From a virus, in IMG/VR virus record IMGVR_UViG_3300045988_046223, positions 1 through 40,142 of that record: DNA of 40,142 bases; one strand, written 5' to 3'. The position numbers were made by a program, and so were the translations under genes. Shown piece by piece: positions 74 through 40,142 of the stretch. The stretch's first letter is position 1. Every line of letters begins with the position of its first letter. The notes beneath the pieces were generated by a model. That model ran no database searches. It was given only the letters and a program-made list of their open reading frames with translations, and was not told the DNA's origin.

Positions 74-148
74 TGTGTACCGTATGTACTTACATCCCCA
101 TACCAAATACAGCCCGAGAATAAAAAATGTGTACTTTCACTGTGTACT
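74..148 (+). promoter_or_regulatory. Candidate integrase arm-type binding sites (P arm)
   Basis: Direct copies of TGTGTAC(T)/TATGTACT lie at 74-80, 83-90, 128-135 and 141-148. The same octamer occurs twice next to attR. Confidence 0.5.
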
Positions 149-1222
149 TTTTCCAGCTGCTATGGCTGCATCAAAAATGCCCTCGATGTTCTCTGCTATT
201 ACTTTATCCTGTCCGTTTATGGCGTGCGCGTATACGCCGTAAGTGTCCATATTCTGGCTGTGCCCTATCACCTGTTTAAGCTGGCCTGTTGGCAAATTGG
301 CTGCTATGCTGACAAACGTATGGCGCAACTCGTACAAGGTGCATTGCGTAATGCCGTTGGCGGCGCAGTATCTTTGCCACGCGCGGCGAATGTTCCGCTC
401 TTCTACCTGTGGAAAGACGCGCTGACACATTCCGGTCAAATCTTTTTGTGCGTTAAGTTCTTCCAGCGAACGAGCCGAAAGGATAACTGCGCGAGGGGCA
501 TTCTCATTCTTTCCCCTTGATTCTTTCCCGTATATGTTCACGGAGCGCTTGAGCCGAGCTACACCGCCCTCAATGTCTCCCCATTCAAGGCCCAGAAGTT
601 CACCGGGGCGCATCCCTGTGAAAACAGCTAATCTATAATAATGTATATACTTGTCAAATACCCTGTGTCCCCTGCTAAGGGTGGTATCGACGTTCAAAAG
701 CGTTATAATATCGGTCGGCTGCAAAATGGTTCGCTCTTTGAAACGCGCACCCTCTGGAACGTGCAGTTCCTCCGGCTCAAACGTTGTCCATCCAGAGCGG
801 CGGCAAAACTTGAAAAAGCTCCGCAGGTCGCCCGCAATGTTCTTAATTGTCTTTTTGCTGCGGCCTGCTGCAAAAGCATCATCCAGTATGTCTTGTACTG
901 CCTGCTCTGTTAGGGAAGTCAGGCGCGTGTCTCCGATGCGCGGGGCAATCCACTTGTTATATCGCCCCTGCATTGGCTTCCAGTTTCCTTCGGAAGAAAT
1001 CTTCATCTGGCGGGCCATGTATTGGACATATGCTTCGGAAACGGTCTGCTTGCGGTTCTGGATGCCTTTTTCAAGCCATGCGTCGGCCTTGGCGTTGGCT
1101 TCACGCTGCCCTGTCCTTCCCGGCTTGGCGCTGGTGAATGTCTTTCTCACGCCGTCTTTCTGCACATTGATTTGCCAACGGTTGGCAGATTCGACCCATT
1201 TTGCGGTATTTGTGCGTTTCAT
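137..1222 (-). CDS. int: Tyrosine recombinase / phage integrase
   Basis: 361-aa ORF with catalytic-signature regions MRPGELLGL, ELRHTFVS and GHSQNMDTYGVYAH. It is adjacent to attL. Confidence 0.95.
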   Translation of the reverse strand: MKRTNTAKWVESANRWQINVQKDGVRKTFTSAKPGRTGQREANAKADAWLEKGIQNRKQTVSEAYVQYMARQMKISSEGNWKPMQGRYNKWIAPRIGDTRLTSLTEQAVQDILDDAFAAGRSKKTIKNIAGDLRSFFKFCRRSGWTTFEPEELHVPEGARFKERTILQPTDIITLLNVDTTLSRGHRVFDKYIHYYRLAVFTGMRPGELLGLEWGDIEGGVARLKRSVNIYGKESRGKNENAPRAVILSARSLEELNAQKDLTGMCQRVFPQVEERNIRRAWQRYCAANGITQCTLYELRHTFVSIAANLPTGQLKQVIGHSQNMDTYGVYAHAINGQDKVIAENIEGIFDAAIAAGKSTQ

Positions 1223-33611: not shown

Positions 33612-33692
33612 ATGTCTGAAAAAGATACGATTTTGACCCCGGAAATGGGTGAAGAACTTTCCAACGGCAAAGGAGACGACGACGATGAGTGA
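33612..33692 (+). CDS. 26-aa acidic peptide upstream of the endolysin
   Basis: GGAGGTG SD. Sequence: MSEKDTILTPEMGEELSNGKGDDDDE. It overlaps the endolysin start. Confidence 0.4.
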   Translation: MSEKDTILTPEMGEELSNGKGDDDDE

Positions 33693-34827
33693 TTCCGCAC
33701 TTGCCGTTTATACGGCCATTAGCCCAAACTGCAACAGACCCCGCAGCCAGCCCATCAGCAAGATCACGGTGCACCATATGGCGGGCAATACCACGCTGGA
33801 AGCGTTCGGTTCTATCGTTGGCAAAGCATCCCGCCAGATGAGCGCAAACTACGCCATCGATTCCAACGGCCGCATCGGTCTGTTTTGCCACGAGGCCGAC
33901 CGTTCGTGGTGCAGCTCGTCGCCGTGGAACGACCAGCGCGCCGTCACGATCGAGGTCGCCAACGACGGCGGTGAGCCTGACTGGCACATCAGCGACAAGG
34001 CCTATGCCGCGCTGCTCGACCTTTGCACCGACATCTGCCGCCGCAACGGCATCAAGGAGCTGACCTACACCGGCGACAAGAACGGCAGCTTGACCATGCA
34101 CTGCTTCTACGCCGCCACGGCCTGTCCAGGTCCCTACCTCAAGAGCAAGTTTCCCGACATTGCGGCGCAGGTCACAACGCGCCTGAAGGGCGACGTGGCC
34201 GACGCTGCACCCGCAAAGACGCAGGAGCAGACGTTCATCGACGTGATGGTCGAGAAGTGCCGGGAGCACTGCCTGAGCGCCCATCTGCTGCCGTCGCTCT
34301 GCATTGCGCAGGCGTGTTTGGAGAGCGCTTACGGCACCAGCGAGCTTGCTGTACAGGCCAACAACCTGTTCGGCATCAAGGCAAGCAACTGGAGCGGTCG
34401 CGTCTACAACAAGACCACCAAGGAGTGGGACGGCGGAAAGTACATCACCATCACGGCGGGCTTCCGCGCCTATGACACGATGGTCGCCTGCGTAGAGGAC
34501 TACATCAAGAAGCTCACTACCATGAGCCGCTACTCAAACCTTGTCGGCTGCACCGACATCAACAAGGCGTGCGAGTACATCCGCGCCGACGGCTGGGCGA
34601 CCAGCCCGACCTACACGTCGAGCTTGCTGGCGGTCGTGAAGCAGTTCAATCTGACGCGGTATGATGCCGCCATCAAAGAGGATAAGCCCGCTGCGCCGAC
34701 GCATCAAGAGGTCTGGCTTGACCACGTTGTGCTTCCAAACGCCGCAGCAATGGAGTTTTACGCCGTTGCCAAAAAGTACAACCTCGATAACGATAGGGCG
34801 TATCATGCAAAATACGTGGAGGGTTGA
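33685..34827 (+). CDS. Bifunctional endolysin: N-acetylmuramoyl-L-alanine amidase plus glucosaminidase domain
   Basis: Amidase_2-like ITVHHMAGN...SANYAIDSNGRI...AVTIEVAND. Glucosaminidase-like LCIAQACLESAYGTSELAVQANNLFGIKA. Confidence 0.9.
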   Translation: MSDSALAVYTAISPNCNRPRSQPISKITVHHMAGNTTLEAFGSIVGKASRQMSANYAIDSNGRIGLFCHEADRSWCSSSPWNDQRAVTIEVANDGGEPDWHISDKAYAALLDLCTDICRRNGIKELTYTGDKNGSLTMHCFYAATACPGPYLKSKFPDIAAQVTTRLKGDVADAAPAKTQEQTFIDVMVEKCREHCLSAHLLPSLCIAQACLESAYGTSELAVQANNLFGIKASNWSGRVYNKTTKEWDGGKYITITAGFRAYDTMVACVEDYIKKLTTMSRYSNLVGCTDINKACEYIRADGWATSPTYTSSLLAVVKQFNLTRYDAAIKEDKPAAPTHQEVWLDHVVLPNAAAMEFYAVAKKYNLDNDRAYHAKYVEG

Positions 34828-35464: not shown

Positions 35465-35662
35465 GTGCGCCGGTTTGATTTTTGTGTTGACCTGGCGACG
35501 TATAACAGAATTTGCTTTTTGCTGACCGACGATGAGCGGGCTGTGCTGGATTACAGGCGGCGCGGCCTGGGCAACGCGGAGATCGCTGCGGAAATGAACT
35601 GCAGCGAGCGCACGGTCAATCGGTTGGTGCGGGCGGTCGTGGATAAAATCAGGAAGATATAA
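35465..35662 (+). CDS. Small sigma-70 region-4 / LuxR-type HTH protein
   Basis: LTDDERAVLDYRRRGLGNAEIAAEMNCSERTVNRLVRAVVDKI. The start codon is uncertain; no good SD is present. Confidence 0.6.
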   Translation: MRRFDFCVDLATYNRICFLLTDDERAVLDYRRRGLGNAEIAAEMNCSERTVNRLVRAVVDKIRKI

Positions 35663-35663
35663 A

Positions 35664-35710
35664 ACAGCGGTCGTGCTGGGCGTTTGCCCGGTACGACCGC
35701 TGTTTTTTTT
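35664..35710. terminator. Long bidirectional terminator hairpin
   Basis: ACAGCGGTCGT...ACGACCGCTGT (11-bp outer stem plus an inner CTGGGC/GCCCGG helix). It is flanked by AAAA and T8. Confidence 0.8.
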
Positions 35711-36179
35711 ATTCTGTTTTTATAAAAAATACAATGCCACAGGAGTAGTAGACCTGGAAGCAACCCTCGACCGTTTCGGCGACTGTGCTGCCACAATCGT
35801 AGTCGTAGATGTTGAATTTACCAGAAATCAGCGTGAAGTAGGTAAGGGGCGCGGTGTCTATCTCGCCGTCGTTATAGATGCAAAACGCGGAGTCGCCGTC
35901 GCCTGCGCCGGTGGGAATCAGAACGGAGAAGGAATCATTGGCGATTTTGACCGCGCCCGCGTCGCTGATGGTGTCGCAGCGGCGGCCGCTGGTCAGCAGC
36001 CACAGGTCCGGCGGTGGGGGTGCGGCAAGTCGGTTGTCGGTGTAGGGTTCATCTTCGTCGATGAGCCAGTCACGACCGACGCGGCGGGCTGTTTTGAAAC
36101 CGCCGCGCAGGGCCTTTTGGCGGACGGTGACGGGGCTGCGGTTGTGGCGGGCAGCGTATTCGGTAATTGTAATTTCCAT
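35709..36179 (-). CDS. HTH (excisionase/MerR-like) protein with unknown beta-rich C-terminal domain
   Basis: 156 aa. N-terminus: MEITITEYAARHNRSPVTVRQKALRGGFKTARRVGRDWLIDEDE. Confidence 0.7.
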   Translation of the reverse strand: MEITITEYAARHNRSPVTVRQKALRGGFKTARRVGRDWLIDEDEPYTDNRLAAPPPPDLWLLTSGRRCDTISDAGAVKIANDSFSVLIPTGAGDGDSAFCIYNDGEIDTAPLTYFTLISGKFNIYDYDCGSTVAETVEGCFQVYYSCGIVFFIKTE

Positions 36180-36193
36180 GGGGGCCTCCTTAA

Positions 36194-36529
36194 TTAAAGT
36201 TCGATGTTGACGTCCACAGTGATTTCTACGCCTACCGGGTTGCCGGCCTTTACAAAGGCAGAGCTGGCGGAGCGGGGCAGGATGTGGATGCTAAGGAGCG
36301 TTATGGTCTCATCAGACTGGATCAGTTCGCCGTTTTCGTCAAGCTCATCCTCTCGGTTGTAGTCGACGTAGTACTCCCAGCGACACAAGGCGTCATCCTG
36401 GCCAGTGACCCACTGCTTGCCGTTGTCCATGGCGGCGCTGGAAATTGCCTCGCGGATTTCATCGATAACATCGTTGCTGTTGACGGAAGTGTTGGTGGCG
36501 GCGTAGATGGCATTAGAAATAGTGGTCAT
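36194..36529 (-). CDS. Hypothetical acidic protein, first gene of the minus-strand cargo operon
   Basis: 111 aa after an AGGAGGAAAATAAA SD context. It lies downstream of a consensus promoter. Confidence 0.7.
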   Translation of the reverse strand: MTTISNAIYAATNTSVNSNDVIDEIREAISSAAMDNGKQWVTGQDDALCRWEYYVDYNREDELDENGELIQSDETITLLSIHILPRSASSAFVKAGNPVGVEITVDVNIEL

Positions 36530-36578
36530 TTTATTTTCCTCCTGTTGTGTGCGGTTGCTTATCTCTTACTGTGTCTAT

Positions 36579-36607
36579 ATTATACATCGCTAGAGATGTA
36601 ATGTCAA
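36579..36607 (-). promoter_or_regulatory. Perfect consensus sigma-A promoter driving 36529->35709
   Basis: On the minus strand: TTGACA (36607-36602), 17-nt spacer, TATAAT (36584-36579). Confidence 0.75.
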
Positions 36608-36720
36608 GGGCTTTTGCAAAGACTTTTTAGAATTTTCTGCAAAAAATGGCGTAAAGTCGGCGTATATGTGGCGCACGCGAAATTGTGTAAAATATTACAA
36701 TAAATATAGAGGATAAAGCC

Positions 36721-37095
36721 ATGTACAGAGAATTAAACCTGAATCCAGAACATAAGCGCGTCGGCGATTGTACCGTAAGAGCCATTGCAGCAGCCACCTT
36801 GAAACAATGGGAGACCGTATATGCAGACTTGGCTGTTGAGGGTTTGTTATTACATGATATGCCGACTGCTAATTACGTATGGGGACATTACCTGCGTCGG
36901 TGTGGGTGGAACCGTTCGGCAATTCCGAACAATTGCCCGGACTGCTACACGGTTGCGGATTTCGCGTCGGAGCACCCAAGCGGGACGTATATTTTGGCTC
37001 TTGCAACGCACGTTGTCTGCGTGCGTGATGGGGACTGGCTTGACACATGGGACAGCGGCGACGAGACGCCACTGTATTATTGGCAGAAAGGATGA
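36721..37095 (+). CDS. Putative papain-fold cysteine peptidase-like protein
   Basis: 124 aa after a GAGGA SD. It has an ordered Cys (GDCTVRA), His (ATHVVCV) and Asp (DTWDSGD). Assignment by motif order only. Confidence 0.45.
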   Translation: MYRELNLNPEHKRVGDCTVRAIAAATLKQWETVYADLAVEGLLLHDMPTANYVWGHYLRRCGWNRSAIPNNCPDCYTVADFASEHPSGTYILALATHVVCVRDGDWLDTWDSGDETPLYYWQKG

Positions 37096-37101
37096 TTGAC
37101 T

Positions 37102-37572
37102 ATGGCGTTTGGCGTACCGTATCAGCCCGGATTTGCGCCGGGATATTACCCGATGGGGCAGCAGATGCCGTCGGCCATGCCCGACCAGCTTGCACAGCTT
37201 CGACAAGCGGCGTATCCGCAGCAGCAACAGACTGCACAGCAGACTGCGCCTATTATTTGGGTGCAGGGAGAAGAAGCGGCGAAGTCGTATCTTTGTGCGC
37301 CGGGGAACAGCGTGCTTTTGATGGACAGCGAGAAAAGTTCGTTCTATATCAAAACAGTGGATGCAAGCGGGATGCCGCAGCCGTTGCGAATCTTTGATTA
37401 CACGGAGCGCACAGCAGCACAGAAACAGCCCACACAGGCCGTGCAAGCACAAGCCGGGGAGTTTGTCACCCGTGCAGAGTTTGACGCGCTGGCGGCACGC
37501 TTTGACGCGCTGACAGCAGACAAACCGCTGACAAAGAAAAAGGAGAGCGAAAATGCCAAATCCACTGTTTAA
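37102..37572 (+). CDS. P/Q-rich protein with globular C-terminal half, unknown function
   Basis: ATG 37102 follows AAAGGA. It has an N-terminal low-complexity P/Q/G/Y region, then IIWVQGEEAAKSYLCAPGNSVLLMDSEKSSFYIKTVDASGMPQPLRIFDY. Confidence 0.65.
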   Translation: MAFGVPYQPGFAPGYYPMGQQMPSAMPDQLAQLRQAAYPQQQQTAQQTAPIIWVQGEEAAKSYLCAPGNSVLLMDSEKSSFYIKTVDASGMPQPLRIFDYTERTAAQKQPTQAVQAQAGEFVTRAEFDALAARFDALTADKPLTKKKESENAKSTV

Positions 37573-37771
37573 TGCTTTAGGCGGCGGGCGTATGCCCGGC
37601 CCGATGGGACAATTTCAGCAGATGATGCAGCAGTTTCAGCAGTTCCGGGCAAATTTTCAGGGAGACCCCAAAAAAGAAGTAGAAAAGCTGTTGCAATCCG
37701 GGCAGATGAGCCAAGCTCAGCTAAACCAGCTGCAAGCGATGGCGCAGCAGTTTCAGGGCTTTTTAAAATAG
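37553..37771 (+). CDS. 72-aa Q-rich helical protein
   Basis: AAGGAG SD. Q/M-rich sequence (QFQQMMQQFQQFRANFQGDPKKEVEKLLQSGQMSQAQLNQLQAMAQQFQ). Confidence 0.6.
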   Translation: MPNPLFNALGGGRMPGPMGQFQQMMQQFQQFRANFQGDPKKEVEKLLQSGQMSQAQLNQLQAMAQQFQGFLK

Positions 37772-37825
37772 GTTCAAACCGTGCGCACGGTGAACAATAA
37801 AATCAACTTTTGAAAGGAGTTAAAT

Positions 37826-38602
37826 ATGAGTCTTTCTTCGGACGGCACTGTGATGACAATGCCTGTTCAGCCCGCGAATACGGGCAATGGCAACGGCTGG
37901 GGCTTTGGCGGCGATGGTGCGTGGTGGATTATTATTCTCTTCCTATTCGTTTTCTGCGGTTGGGGCGGCAGCTGGGGCAACAACGGATTTGGCGGCGGTA
38001 ATGGTGCTGGCGCTGTCGATGGCTACATCCTCACCAGCGACTTTGCCAACATCGAACGCAAAATCGACGTCGTGAACAACGGCCTGTGTGACGGTTTCTA
38101 TGCTCAGGCACAGCTTGTCAACGGTGTGCAGAACGCTATGCAGCAGGGCTTTATGAGCGCCGAAATCAGCCGCGCAAACCAGCAGGCCGCATTTATGCAG
38201 CAGCTTAACGCCATGCAGATGCAGCAGGCTAATTGCTGCTGCGAGACCCGCGAGGCGATTCAGGGTGTAAACTACAACCTTGCTACGCAGGCTTGCGACA
38301 CGCGCCAGACCATCCAGAACGGTACGCGCGACATCATCGAGAACCAGAACGCCAATGCGCGTGCGGTGCTTGACGCACTGACCGCCCAGCGTATCGAGGC
38401 AAAGGATGCCAAGATTGCCGAGCAGAACCAGCAGATTTTCGCTGCACAGCTTGCCGCTAGTCAGGCTGCGCAGAATGAAACGCTGAAAGCCTATATGAGC
38501 GGGCAGCTTGCTTACTACAACCCCCGCCCTGTTCCTGCTTTCCCTGTTCCCGCACCGTATCAGTATGGGAATTGCGGCACCTGCAACGGCTGCGGATGCT
38601 AA
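37826..38602 (+). CDS. Gly/Trp-rich membrane-anchored, Q-rich coiled-coil protein with Cys clusters
   Basis: 258 aa after a GAAAGGAG SD. It contains NGWGFGGDGAWWIIILFLFVFCGWGGSWGNNGFGGGNG, an internal CCC, and a C-terminal NCGTCNGCGC. Confidence 0.75.
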   Translation: MSLSSDGTVMTMPVQPANTGNGNGWGFGGDGAWWIIILFLFVFCGWGGSWGNNGFGGGNGAGAVDGYILTSDFANIERKIDVVNNGLCDGFYAQAQLVNGVQNAMQQGFMSAEISRANQQAAFMQQLNAMQMQQANCCCETREAIQGVNYNLATQACDTRQTIQNGTRDIIENQNANARAVLDALTAQRIEAKDAKIAEQNQQIFAAQLAASQAAQNETLKAYMSGQLAYYNPRPVPAFPVPAPYQYGNCGTCNGCGC

Positions 38603-38665
38603 AAACGAATACGGCAACTTGTCGGAGCATCTGACATGTTCGGCCCCGTGCCGATAGTGCAAAAT

Positions 38666-38701
38666 GTGGCGGGGCAATCGTCCCGCCACTATCTTTTTTT
38701 G
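38666..38701 (+). terminator. Intrinsic terminator inside the cargo cassette
   Basis: GTGGCGGG gcaatcgt CCCGCCAC followed by a T-run (38694-38701). Confidence 0.75.
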
Positions 38702-38715
38702 AAAGGAATGATTTT

Positions 38716-39138
38716 ATGGCTGAATTTACAAACGCCAATACCGTGAGCGTGGCAGCAGGCCAGAACGTGCCGTTGACAGAAACGGCAGTAGCGGGTAAGG
38801 GCTGTGTCGTACACAGAGAGGGCGCGGGCATCGTTACACTGCGCGGCATCACGAACCAGTGCAAAGCTCGTTTCAAAGTGGGATTTGGTGCAAATGTTGC
38901 TATCCCTACCGGCGGCACAGTGGAAGCTATTACTGCTGCGCTTGCCATCAACGGTGAACCGCTGAACAGTGCGACTGCAACCGTGACACCGGCAGCAGTA
39001 GAAAACTTCTTTAATATCTATGTGACGTCTTTTGTTGAAGTTCCGCGCGGCTGCTGCCTGACCGTTGCCGCCGAAAATACAAGCACACAAACCGTTTTGT
39101 TTGCGAACGCAAACTTTGTGGTCGAGAGAGTGAGCTGA
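38716..39138 (+). CDS. Small beta-rich protein (jelly-roll-like pattern), unknown function
   Basis: 140 aa after a GAAAGGAA SD. It shows an alternating hydrophobic pattern, a CC pair (PRGCCLTV) and no signal peptide. Confidence 0.7.
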   Translation: MAEFTNANTVSVAAGQNVPLTETAVAGKGCVVHREGAGIVTLRGITNQCKARFKVGFGANVAIPTGGTVEAITAALAINGEPLNSATATVTPAAVENFFNIYVTSFVEVPRGCCLTVAAENTSTQTVLFANANFVVERVS

Positions 39139-39150
39139 AAGGAGTAAACC

Positions 39151-39546
39151 ATGAGTAAAAGAGTTTTGTATGACTTGAAAGACATGCTGTGCGCAGAACT
39201 GGACGAAATCGGAAAGAAGGGTGAAATGTCTGCCGGTGACTTGGAAACTGTTCACAAGCTGACTGACACCATCAAGAACATCGACAAAATCACCATGCTG
39301 GAAGAAGGCGGCTACAGCCGCGATGAAGATTACAGCCGGGATGGTGATTGGAGCGCTAATATGCACGGCAATTATGGACGCGGCAGCAGCTATGCGCGGC
39401 GCGGTTCGCATTATGTGCGTGGCCATTACAGCCGAGACGATGCGCGAGACAGCATGATGCGAAAGCTGGAAGACATGATCCGAAACGTTGATGGATACGA
39501 CCGCGAGACTATCCAGCATTGCATCGATGAACTGAAAAACATTTGA
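39151..39546 (+). CDS. Helical protein with central Y/S/R/D/G low-complexity region
   Basis: 131 aa after a GAAAGGAG SD. Central region: GGYSRDEDYSRDGDWS...GRGSSYARRGSHYVRGHYSRDD. Confidence 0.7.
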   Translation: MSKRVLYDLKDMLCAELDEIGKKGEMSAGDLETVHKLTDTIKNIDKITMLEEGGYSRDEDYSRDGDWSANMHGNYGRGSSYARRGSHYVRGHYSRDDARDSMMRKLEDMIRNVDGYDRETIQHCIDELKNI

Positions 39547-39560
39547 CGGAGGTGGCGGCT

Positions 39561-39914
39561 ATGGTTGACGTGCGAGAGATTGACGGCGCTATAGCCGAAA
39601 TCGAAAATAGCGAACTTACCATGACCAGAGTTAAAAATTTAGCGGCGCTGTATGTTGTGAAAAATCAGCAGCTTGCAGATGTATCCCCTGCCCCACAAAA
39701 AGCAGAACGGCAAGAGACAGTTCGCTACTACGAAGCGGCAAAGCCGTCTACAAGGGCTGCTGTTGGCAGCAGTGACTTTTTACGAGCTGTGTCAAATGTA
39801 GACCTTACGGATGCGCTGAACGTGCTGGATGAGCTTATGTCGGCTTTATATGTGGCGAACCCTAAAGTTTATAATGGCGTTATGCGGAAATTGGAGCGTT
39901 TACAGGATGAGTGA
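39561..39914 (+). CDS. Hypothetical helical protein
   Basis: ATG 39561 follows GGAGGTGG. The C-terminal motif LNVLDELMSALYVANPKVY is shared with the next ORF. Confidence 0.6.
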   Translation: MVDVREIDGAIAEIENSELTMTRVKNLAALYVVKNQQLADVSPAPQKAERQETVRYYEAAKPSTRAAVGSSDFLRAVSNVDLTDALNVLDELMSALYVANPKVYNGVMRKLERLQDE

Positions 39915-40059
39915 ATTTTTGGAGATTGTAAACAAGGCTGATACCGGTAGAGTGTGGCGCGTGCTGGACGAGTTTATGGATGCGCTGAAAGAAGCAAAGC
40001 CGGAATTGTATGCAGAACTGCTGCACAATCTGCGTAAAAAATATGCAAGTGTGTACTAA
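39907..40059 (+). CDS. 50-aa helical protein, paralogous motif to the preceding ORF
   Basis: Contains VWRVLDEFMDALKEAKPELY. It overlaps the preceding stop and is the last gene before attR. Confidence 0.5.
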   Translation: MSEFLEIVNKADTGRVWRVLDEFMDALKEAKPELYAELLHNLRKKYASVY

Positions 40060-40069: not shown

Positions 40070-40080
40070 GCATAAAGAAA

Positions 40081-40115
40081 ACAGCGTAGATTCCGACGAA
40101 TCTACGCTGTTTCTA
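40081..40115 (+). terminator. Intrinsic terminator at the right prophage end
   Basis: ACAGCGTAGATT ccgacg AATCTACGCTGT (12-bp perfect stem) followed by TTTCTATT. Confidence 0.8.
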
Positions 40116-40116
40116 T

Positions 40117-40142
40117 TGGTGGAGGATGGGGGACTCGAACCC
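40117..40142 (-). tRNA. 3' portion of a tRNA gene (T-loop, T-stem, acceptor 3' strand, encoded CCA); the 5' part is outside the window and the isotype is undetermined
   Basis: The reverse complement of 40117-40142 is GGGTTCGAGTCCCCCATCCTCCACCA. Confidence 0.65.
40119..40142. repeat. attR core (direct repeat)
   Basis: Identical to 1-24. The window ends inside it, so the repeat could be longer. Confidence 0.85.

Follow-up and report, generated by a model that had tools for sequence, protein, structure and literature searches.

The right arm of IMG/VR virus record IMGVR_UViG_3300045988_046223 raises the question of whether a run of small genes, none of which has a recognizable phage function, belongs together and, if so, what it might build. 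The window, that is the whole 40,142-nucleotide (nt) stretch of DNA analyzed (positions 1 to 40,142 of the record), had been described in a first-pass annotation as carrying at its right end a plus-strand cassette of eight open reading frames (ORFs), possibly forming one functional system. All eight ORFs, here called O1 to O8, are present in the ORF table: O1 (36721–37095, 124 amino acids (aa)), O2 (37102–37572, 156 aa, with an alternative TTG start at 37096), O3 (37553–37771, 72 aa, overlapping O2 by 20 nt), O4 (37826–38602, 258 aa), O5 (38716–39138, 140 aa), O6 (39151–39546, 131 aa), O7 (39561–39914, starting with ATG, with a TTG at 39543) and O8 (39907–40059, 50 aa, a longer ORF beginning at 39829). 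We find that these ORFs, an upstream helix-turn-helix (HTH) gene and a structured RNA between O4 and O5 make up one self-contained module, which thousands of temperate gut Firmicutes phages carry and which is transferred between them and retained as a unit. As to its product, we tentatively favor a multiprotein assembly that is anchored in the membrane at the cell envelope.

The unity of the module is seen in its recurrence. An alignment of O4, run against 185,579 species genomes, yielded 230 relatives, from which 80 loci were kept. The module order recurs in these genome loci and in about 50 viral contigs; in all, it is shared by about 150 related loci. The co-occurrence across genomes that had been proposed as a check on the single-system idea was thus observed, in the same gene order, on many phage backbones and in some contexts outside late operons. 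The loci (numbered with an L where they need to be told apart) carry the source labels Oscillospiraceae, Lachnospiraceae, Ruminococcus, Acutalibacter, Christensenella, Subdoligranulum and Bacilli-class metagenome-assembled genomes (MAGs), and many lie on phage-sized contigs binned to unrelated taxa. Using iterated searches, O4 was found to be accompanied by O5 in 51 of 64 loci, by O6 in 46 of 64 and by O1 in 40 of 53. Close relatives follow the order O1-O2-O3-O4-O5-O6-O7(-O8), and distant ones the order (HTH)-O2-like-O3-like-O4-O5-O6-O1, with O2- and O3-sized genes upstream.

The surroundings of the module vary considerably. In the window it is placed between the lysis genes and the core of the attachment (att) site (40117–40142), and likewise in Dulem virus 33, where it is bordered by a PGRP lysin and the integrase. 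Gemmiger prophages show the series lysin, holin, HTH gene, terminator, eight genes (124, 149, 72, 258, 140, 129, 107 and 45 aa) and host DNA or integrase, and in Bajarodcaudo virus 5 a holin, a C39-like lysin, a small helical protein and an HTH gene precede O2-, O3- and O4-like genes. The lysis-to-att position does not hold for the abundant lineage of Dulem virus 35 and L091, in which O1, small proteins with hydrophobic tails, the HTH gene, a terminator and O2–O6 are found within the head operon, between MuF-like and scaffold/major capsid genes; the endolysin of Dulem virus 35 is encoded far from the module. Genomic islands provide a further setting: in Lachnospira intestinalis, Clostridium sp. 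CAG:510 and a Clostridiales MAG, Rha, ImmA-like and toxin-antitoxin-like genes surround the module instead of late phage genes. Finally, the endolysins on module-bearing backbones are of the Amidase_2+Glucosaminidase, PGRP, C39-like and L-Ala-D-Glu peptidase types.

Three side observations concern these surroundings. In Dulem virus 33, a gene annotated as a homing-type endonuclease (L001 8876–9427, minus strand) stands between O3 and O4 of an apparently undisrupted module. In the head-operon lineage, the portal gene is separated from the MuF-like gene by a Phage_holin_5_2 gene (L091 4177–4473; L009 3934–4666), and the small proteins with hydrophobic C-termini that precede the HTH gene there were read as XhlA/holin-like, a match that Pfam did not give; holin-type genes thus seem to have been relocated together with the module into the head operon. 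In L. intestinalis (L090 8173–8661, minus strand), a sigG/sigF-like gene lacking region 2 breaks off at '..AIPMIIGEIKRYLRD' where the element begins, which suggests that the L090 element was inserted into a sporulation sigma gene.

Is the module then optional cargo, as its location had implied to the first-pass annotation? The stretch between lysis genes and att is a classical place for morons and lysogenic-conversion cassettes, such as HK97-type morons or the Staphylococcus aureus Sa3int immune-evasion cluster, and the module resembles these in its attP/integrase position, its own terminators and its mosaic alleles. We assembled a set of close relatives from viral contigs, selected by endolysin identity (88% or more) and by the length of sequence available 3′ of the lysin gene (4.2 kb or more). 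Nearly all of them have either the module itself or a variant allele of it, the sole exceptions being two loci in which a large insertion shifts the region past the fetched DNA. Within this set the alleles form a mosaic, with identities of 77–100% for O5, 38–95% for O6 and 81–100% for O4 (compared with about 90% for the lysins), and one locus (L118) harbors an entire variant module. The module also differs from morons in uniting six to eight co-adapted genes with a regulator and an RNA of their own, in being near-universal rather than sporadic, and in its possible placement within a head operon. Optional moron cargo is therefore a doubtful description: the block is mobile between backbones, yet it is not dispensable, sporadic cargo.

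The second part of the unit is the conserved spacer of ~115 nt between O4 and O5 (38602–38718, plus strand), which constitutes the O4 3′ untranslated region (UTR) and the O5 leader. On the evidence of a covariance model, covariation and folding energy, this spacer is a new structured RNA motif of three hairpins (HP): HP1 (38620–38636), HP2 (38640–38654) and HP3 (38666–38689), the last having a 10-bp stem and forming, with the U-run that follows it, the internal terminator noticed after O4 at the outset. A terminator-like hairpin occurs downstream of O4 in 49 of 83 distinct loci, compared with 4.5% of random windows. The covariance model R1, built from 27 spacers, matches 41 loci with one plus-strand copy each, always 3′ of O4 where the position was checked, and 14 of these loci were outside the training set. 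Pairing is possible in 93.6% of alignment cells, against 78% in column shuffles and 42–58% with slid partners, compensatory change is seen at 22 of the 23 pairs, and the covariation score reaches 0.437, compared with 0.19 and 0.10–0.13 in controls, the structure being somewhat favored in these figures by the fitting of the alignment to the model. The folding z-score relative to shuffles is −3.15, and a distant group of loci with a different sequence (e.g. L064 10730–10815) again folds into three hairpins (z −3.75). As G-U pairs are frequent on the plus strand, the element is most readily understood as a sense-strand RNA.

The Shine-Dalgarno (SD) sequence and ATG of O5 are located directly 3′ of the U-run. 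Because the SD sequence abuts the U-run, expression of O5–O8 must rely on read-through or on a start inside the element. In this respect the element is akin to leader/attenuator and 3′ UTR-derived RNAs, being a sense RNA that ends in an intrinsic terminator directly before the next SD sequence. It differs from them in having no Rfam match (the best being rpsL_pseudo, 24.6 bits against a threshold of 70) and in that a candidate switch between the HP2 loop and the terminator lacks covariation support: an antiterminator in which the HP2 loop would pair with the terminator's 5′ arm is compatible with 90% of cells, as against 89% in shuffles, only three cells are compensatory, and the idea was dropped. 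A leader peptide was likewise discarded, as the compensatory changes alter the would-be amino acids and an SD sequence is missing.

The third part of the unit is a 65-aa GerE/LuxR-type HTH gene resembling sigma-70 region 4 (35465–35662, plus strand; Pfam GerE 1e-9, Sigma70_r4 5e-6), a candidate regulator that travels with the module. Homologues are found upstream of the module in Gemmiger prophages, Dulem virus 35, Bajarodcaudo virus 5, L091 and viral contigs, the usual arrangement being the small HTH gene, then a terminator, then the module. In the window, the lysis/HTH transcription unit is closed by an intrinsic terminator with a 20-bp stem and a T-run (35662–35705, from a terminator scan), so that the long terminator reported upstream of the cassette was confirmed as well. 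The same succession of HTH gene and terminator is present in L003–L008, L009 and L091 and is retained even within the head operon. In 24 of 37 lineages, the 220 nt preceding O1 contain a terminator-like hairpin, compared with ~7% of random windows of the same size. Between terminator and O1, the 5′ control region (36610–36720, plus strand) contains the conserved stretch CGTAAA..CGTATA..TGGCGCAC..TG.GTAAAAT followed by an SD sequence. It is common to the window and L003–L008, although in the window an insertion parts it from the terminator, and judging from its sequence it may act as a promoter. An extended −10 promoter upstream of O1 was also considered across lineages, but it is inconsistently present (9 of 37) and was not used as evidence.

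What do the proteins look like? Consistent with the initial impression that no characterized family is recognizable, Pfam, NCBIfam and PADLOC gave nothing above threshold for the eight ORFs and two minus-strand ORFs upstream, and PDB sequence and profile searches with O1, O2, O4, O6 and a DUF7841 variant returned no match. In PHROGs, O1–O6 fall into six families, each labeled as of unknown function. Literature searches on DUF7841, phage BclA_C, prophage-exosporium/TNF-like proteins and C1q-like proteins in Clostridia retrieved nothing relevant, and no described account of these families, of the module or of the RNA was found in the libraries and literature searched. Structure predictions were more informative for O5 and O1.

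O5, which had been described as a beta-rich protein, is all-beta in its AlphaFold2 model (predicted local distance difference test (pLDDT) 85.5, predicted template modeling (TM) score 0.81), with ten strands arranged as a jelly roll. The top Foldseek matches are the C-terminal domain of F-BclA (9h38; TM 0.74, E-value (E) 2e-6), EDA-A1, ExsFA (7r1m), BclA (1wck) and BxpB (8d02), with a probability of 1.00 to the BclA C-terminal domain, EDA-A1, ExsFA and 4-1BBL and TM scores of up to 0.75; the central spike knob of phage phi812 is also among the matches. On the basis of this model, O5 is assigned as a stand-alone TNF/C1q-like jelly roll. At sequence level, O5 matches phrog_20016 (2e-57) and belongs to a family of 7032 homologous clusters from human and animal gut metagenomes, which have neither names nor Pfam domains; O5 itself matches nothing in Pfam at curated thresholds. 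The L118 variant allele scores below the cut-offs with BclA_C (2e-5, 24.7 bits, cut-off 38) and C1q (1e-3, 19.8 bits, cut-off 23.7).

The likeness to exosporium proteins bears on the proposal, made in the first-pass annotation, that the genes might build a spore-surface (exosporium-like) assembly in sporulating hosts. O5 shares the 10-strand jelly roll of the BclA C-terminal domain, ExsFA and BxpB (TM 0.65–0.74, E 2e-6 to 8e-5), which are its best structural matches, and, like ExsFA and BxpB, it stands alone as a ~15-kDa domain and has no signal peptide. Further points in keeping with this proposal are the Cys-rich, Gln-rich and R/S/Y-rich partner proteins, a regulator of the GerE type, the position of the L090 module next to a truncated sigG/sigF-like gene and the absence of signal peptides from the module proteins, which coat proteins made in the mother cell also lack. 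However, mammalian TNF ligands match O5 equally well, so that the resemblance is at the level of the fold, and the Pfam name GerE covers the whole LuxR-type HTH family. Other genera labeling module contigs are, to our belief, non-sporulating as well. Compared with BclA, O5 has no collagen-like stalk, is phage-borne and lacks membership at sequence level, and GXY repeats are absent from every module ORF. Since Gemmiger, probably the host genus, has been described as not forming spores (PMC11724591), a spore-specific role is very unlikely, and what stands of the proposal is the fold.

TNF-like knobs are also common on virus fibers, and with the phi812 knob among its matches O5 could be imagined as the trimeric knob of a set of virion-associated accessories, whether decoration proteins, fibers or ejected internal proteins. 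The location between MuF-like and scaffold/major capsid genes in Dulem virus 35 and L091 and the presence of the module in almost all close relatives would agree with this. Against it stand the unrelated backbones and varied positions, the islands that carry the module without virion genes among the ORFs seen, the terminators that flank and split the unit, the very hydrophobic segment of O4 and the architecture of O5, whose jelly roll begins at residue 2 and leaves no N-terminal attachment extension. We consider a virion role unlikely. In the close family, moreover, the O5 loops are more conserved than the strands (0.33 versus 0.49 bits), for which reason a fast-evolving receptor-binding head was rejected for this family; the conserved loops point to fixed protein partners rather than to an evolving receptor site. 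O5 probably forms a trimer.

The O5 slot is not always occupied by O5. At least 11 loci (L010 6734–7153; L087 10619–11029; also L039, L041, L048, L051, L056, L057, L061, L070, L071 and L086) have instead a protein of 136–139 aa with an N-terminal CxxxCxxC (MSCKPVCKLC...) and no Pfam match, which comes after a much shorter spacer than O5. In hhalign comparisons with the L118 variant or with this slot-5 alternative, the O5 profile was too shallow (effective number of sequences 1.3).

For O1, a papain-like Cys...His...Asp order had been noted, and this topology is seen both in the AlphaFold2 model (pLDDT 97.4) and in the conserved columns of the family alignment. Cys17, His97, Asp108 and Asp111 are each at least 90% conserved; Cys17 opens helix 17–26, and His97 and Asp108 are positioned by the following strands 98–102 and 105–108. 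The model thus represents O1 as a minimal papain-fold Cys-His-Asp protein. It is similar in this arrangement to small papain-fold enzymes (Josephin deubiquitinases, C39 peptidases and Tgl transglutaminases), with Cys at a helix start and His/Asp on following strands, but its 124 residues make it smaller than known members, it belongs to no Pfam family and none of its PDB matches reaches an E below 0.001. The best PDB match in Foldseek is a weak one to Josephin-2 (probability 0.87, E 0.087, TM 0.47), and in BFVD the fold is found in many uncharacterized phage proteins, including those of phages with Gram-negative hosts, next to weak C39 (probability 0.91) and Josephin matches. O1 matches phrog_3754 (4e-28) and has 1251 representatives at 50% clustering; for 42 diverse relatives there was no Pfam family, a single member scoring 0.003 with FV_peptidase. 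Peptidase and transglutaminase chemistry are indistinguishable from the O1 sequence.

O1 stays with the module when the gene order shifts. Two single proteins show it in other arrangements, namely P0362 (290 aa), in which an O1 domain is fused to a complete O2-type protein, and P0315, in which one O1 domain follows another; both are lone examples and may be artefacts of assembly or gene calling. The three island loci encode after O6, where O1 stands in other distant loci, a protein of 106–107 aa with the HExxH-like motif HELC (L090 13258–13581; L063 3441–3761; L068 12293–12616). Although Pfam gives no match, this protein may be a Zn peptidase standing in, non-homologously, for an O1 peptidase.

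That the best PDB matches of O1 are papain folds of the deubiquitinase type could point to superinfection exclusion, anti-phage defence or counter-defence expressed from the prophage, with O4 as the membrane part and O1 as a Josephin-like deconjugating or proteolytic effector. Proximity to att and integrase together with own terminators is reminiscent of lysogenic-conversion and exclusion genes, and alleles are swapped among close relatives. The defence system suggested at first sight is nevertheless not supported as one of a known type. PADLOC gave as its sole match O3 with a DRT model (0.0026), which came about through low-complexity sequence and is not credible, and Pfam/NCBIfam scans of the module detected none of the usual effector or sensor domains, such as those of nucleases, NTPases or NADases. 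Furthermore, O5 is highly conserved, loops included, unlike a protein in an arms race, and one lineage has the module inside the head operon. Taken together, these results make a role in exclusion or defence improbable.

Among the remaining proteins, O4 is the most telling. It has no Pfam, NCBIfam or PDB match, but it matches phrog_16490 (5e-55), and its family comprises 7988 homologous clusters, again from human and animal gut metagenomes and without names or Pfam domains. Its layout consists of a Gly/Trp-flanked hydrophobic anchor (~32–47), a Cys-containing region rich in Q/N/A and a Pro-rich tail with a terminal Cys cluster. The hydrophobic peak is a 19-mer at residues 27–45 (Kyte-Doolittle 1.78), which is the sole candidate transmembrane segment among the module proteins. 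The CCC and CxxCxxCxC clusters are where the first reading of the sequence had placed them, as part of ten Cys residues that include CCC at 137–139 and the C-terminal CGTCNGCGC (CxxCxxCxC). Cys88, Cys137–139 and Cys157 are invariant in the family alignment, and relatives down to 43% identity retain a 'GLCDGFY' motif, the Pro-rich stretch and the terminal Cys cluster.

The other proteins are of low complexity, and the compositions originally reported for O2, O3 and O4 agree with residue counts. O2 (15% Ala, 12% Gln, 8% Pro; phrog_21718, 3e-32) has no PDB or Pfam match and is built of a P/Q/Y-rich N-terminus, a small conserved center (V.GE..AK....D.....Y.K..D..G...R.F) and, at the C-terminus, an amphipathic helix, an architecture that is kept in distant loci. 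O3 is 24% Gln (phrog_22984, 1e-22), and its slot holds a small gene of similar size in most loci. In O6 (phrog_28802, 2.5e-8), conserved N- and C-terminal segments flank a low-complexity center rich in R/G/S/Y/D, and this architecture is likewise retained in distant loci; the O6 homologue of Dulem virus 35 has 741 clusters, none informatively named, and in variant modules a DUF7841 protein fills the O6 slot. The last three ORFs had been regarded as related helical proteins. This holds for the C-terminal ~43 residues of O7 and O8 (37% identity, E 5e-8), and by sequence O8 appears to be a paralogue of the O7 C-terminus, but O6 is unrelated to O7. O7 is syntenic in close relatives. Of the strong SD sequences ascribed to every ORF, those of O1–O7 are present (AGGA/GGAG-type motifs), while O8 has a weak one; as the O8 start overlaps the O7 stop, the two genes could be translationally coupled.

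How might these parts work together? We favor, tentatively, the reading that the module products assemble at the cell envelope into a membrane-anchored multiprotein structure. O4 would insert via its Gly/Trp-flanked hydrophobic segment, the remainder forming an elongated stalk, and its conserved Cys residues may serve in cross-linking or metal binding. O5 would be a globular head or partner, a putative trimer making protein-protein contacts through its conserved loops. The Gln-rich or low-complexity proteins O2, O3 and O6–O8 may act as adaptors or matrix, and O1 might process or cross-link partner proteins. Given the terminator upstream, we infer that the unit is transcribed apart from the late operon; the HTH protein probably controls it, and the three-hairpin RNA could set the output of O5–O8 relative to O1–O4. 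The outcome would be an altered envelope or surface of the lysogen or infected cell, for example in adhesion or exclusion, and not a part of the virion. A structural virion role is disfavored because phages carry the module regardless of their virion and lysin type, and this independence, the insulation by terminators, the single hydrophobic anchor and the probably trimeric, conserved head are the reasons for preferring an envelope assembly. A bolder version, on which we would place little weight, is a self-assembling, membrane-anchored envelope apparatus with a TNF/C1q-type head, similar to an exosporium nap but outside sporulation and equipped with its own HTH regulator, a papain-fold enzyme for maturation or cross-linking, and a riboregulator.

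Several findings speak against an envelope assembly. No homologue of known function was found, and the proposed roles rest on fold, composition and context. The hydrophobic segment of O4 has no flanking charged residues that would indicate its orientation in the membrane. None of the soluble module proteins has a signal peptide, so that an extracellular assembly would need holin- or lysis-dependent release, or else lies on the cytoplasmic face. O1-like folds occur in many unrelated phages without the module, and the link of O1 to the module may accordingly be loose. For separate transcription, the 5′ control region offers a −10-like TAAAAT (36688–36693) and no recognizable −35. Lastly, the near-universal carriage in the lineage of the window phage, the orientation of the module, which is always that of the late genes and often directly after holins, and the head-operon location in one abundant lineage would fit a late lytic function too.

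These last points lead to the main rival, a late lytic accessory for lysis or egress that would be activated by the HTH protein at the close of the late program and act with holins on the membrane or on outer layers of the envelope such as an S-layer. O4 would here be a spanin-type anchored rod and O1 a hydrolase. In most lineages the module comes right after the holin/endolysin genes, in the order HTH gene, terminator, module, and the relocated module is preceded by the HTH gene and by the small proteins with hydrophobic tails that were read as holin-like and gave no Pfam match. A candidate N-terminal anchor, conserved Cys residues and a Pro-rich tail are reminiscent of i- and o-spanins, and O4 resembles spanins (Rz/Rz1 or unimolecular) in these features and in following holin and endolysin. 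It differs in having no sequence similarity to them and no lipoprotein partner, as a lipobox was absent from all module ORFs when their translations were read, and in being accompanied by at least five further conserved genes. The Firmicutes hosts of these loci appear to be monoderm, and we take them to be so, unlike the diderm hosts of spanins; a spanin would not be needed. The endolysin type is irrelevant to carriage of the module, islands carry it without lysis genes among the ORFs seen, terminators part it from the lysis genes, and in Dulem virus 35 it is far from the endolysin. We know of no lysis cassette with six to eight genes and a TNF-like protein. A lytic accessory is thus possible but doubtful.

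In summary of its relation to described systems, the module matches none of them and lies outside the known kinds, a statement that is founded on the absence of matches rather than on a shown mechanism. Hypothetical proteins are now resolved into a bounded unit (HTH gene, terminator, O1–O4, structured RNA with terminator, O5–O8), to which two confidently modeled folds, TNF/C1q for O5 and papain-like for O1, and a new RNA motif have been added. Both the O4 and the O5 family run to more than 7000 clusters, none of them named and without a Pfam family or solved relative. A module so common and conserved must matter to the temperate phages that infect Oscillospiraceae, Lachnospiraceae and other gut bacteria related to these, among which are abundant butyrate producers. 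Should an envelope assembly be the correct reading, thousands of gut Firmicutes phages would carry such an apparatus, and lysogens or lysates would interact differently with other phages or with the mammalian host.

The window itself is a complete temperate siphophage of ~40 kb whose host is probably Gemmiger. Near-identical proteins are present in Gemmiger formicilis assemblies; the related Gemmiger prophages adjoin host Rnf genes. It encodes a large terminase, an SPP1-type portal, a MuF-like protein, a major capsid protein, a tape measure, a tail endopeptidase and, near its left end, an integrase (137–1222, minus strand). The lysis region comprises an Amidase_2+Glucosaminidase endolysin (33649–34827) and holin-like genes up to 35456. 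Because its last 23 nt repeat its first 23 nt, the window represents either a genome in circular form or a prophage with att repeats at its ends, integrating into ssrA: the att core corresponds to the 3′ end of the transfer-messenger RNA (tmRNA) gene (40117–40142, minus strand; Rfam tmRNA 3′ end, E 3e-5). A tRNA as att core was considered, and ARAGORN found none at the window end. From the tmRNA 3′ end and the terminal repeat it follows that the cassette terminates at the att site and adjoins the integrase in the circular form. Between O8 and this site, a terminator-like hairpin with a 14-bp stem and a weak T-run (40080–40111, plus strand) was read from the sequence and not called by the consensus scan. 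A further palindromic hairpin, GTTCAAACCGTGCGCACGGTGAAC, is found in the short O3–O4 spacer (window 37775–37798).

Finally, the divergent region upstream of O1 had been thought to insulate the cassette. While its terminator is real, the two minus-strand genes (35709–36607, minus strand, with the ORFs at 35709–36529) form an insertion that does not belong to the module and that the closest Gemmiger prophages lack. A perfect consensus sigma-70 promoter (TTGACA-17-TATAAT, minus strand, 36607–36579) drives the pair, which encodes a 156-aa protein with a weakly HTH_17/excisionase-like N-terminus and a 111-aa protein. The insertion is limited to a sub-lineage (L092, L093, L095, L097, L140 and L141) and missing from L003–L008, where the HTH gene and terminator directly precede O1; the inserted pair may be a separate moron. 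In L118, the second of the two genes is swapped for an unrelated 218-aa gene. A different insertion was observed in L142 (10676–16933; also in L123), which are otherwise close relatives: between the holin and HTH genes, a 2085-aa ORF follows a 284-aa protein rich in Q/N/A.

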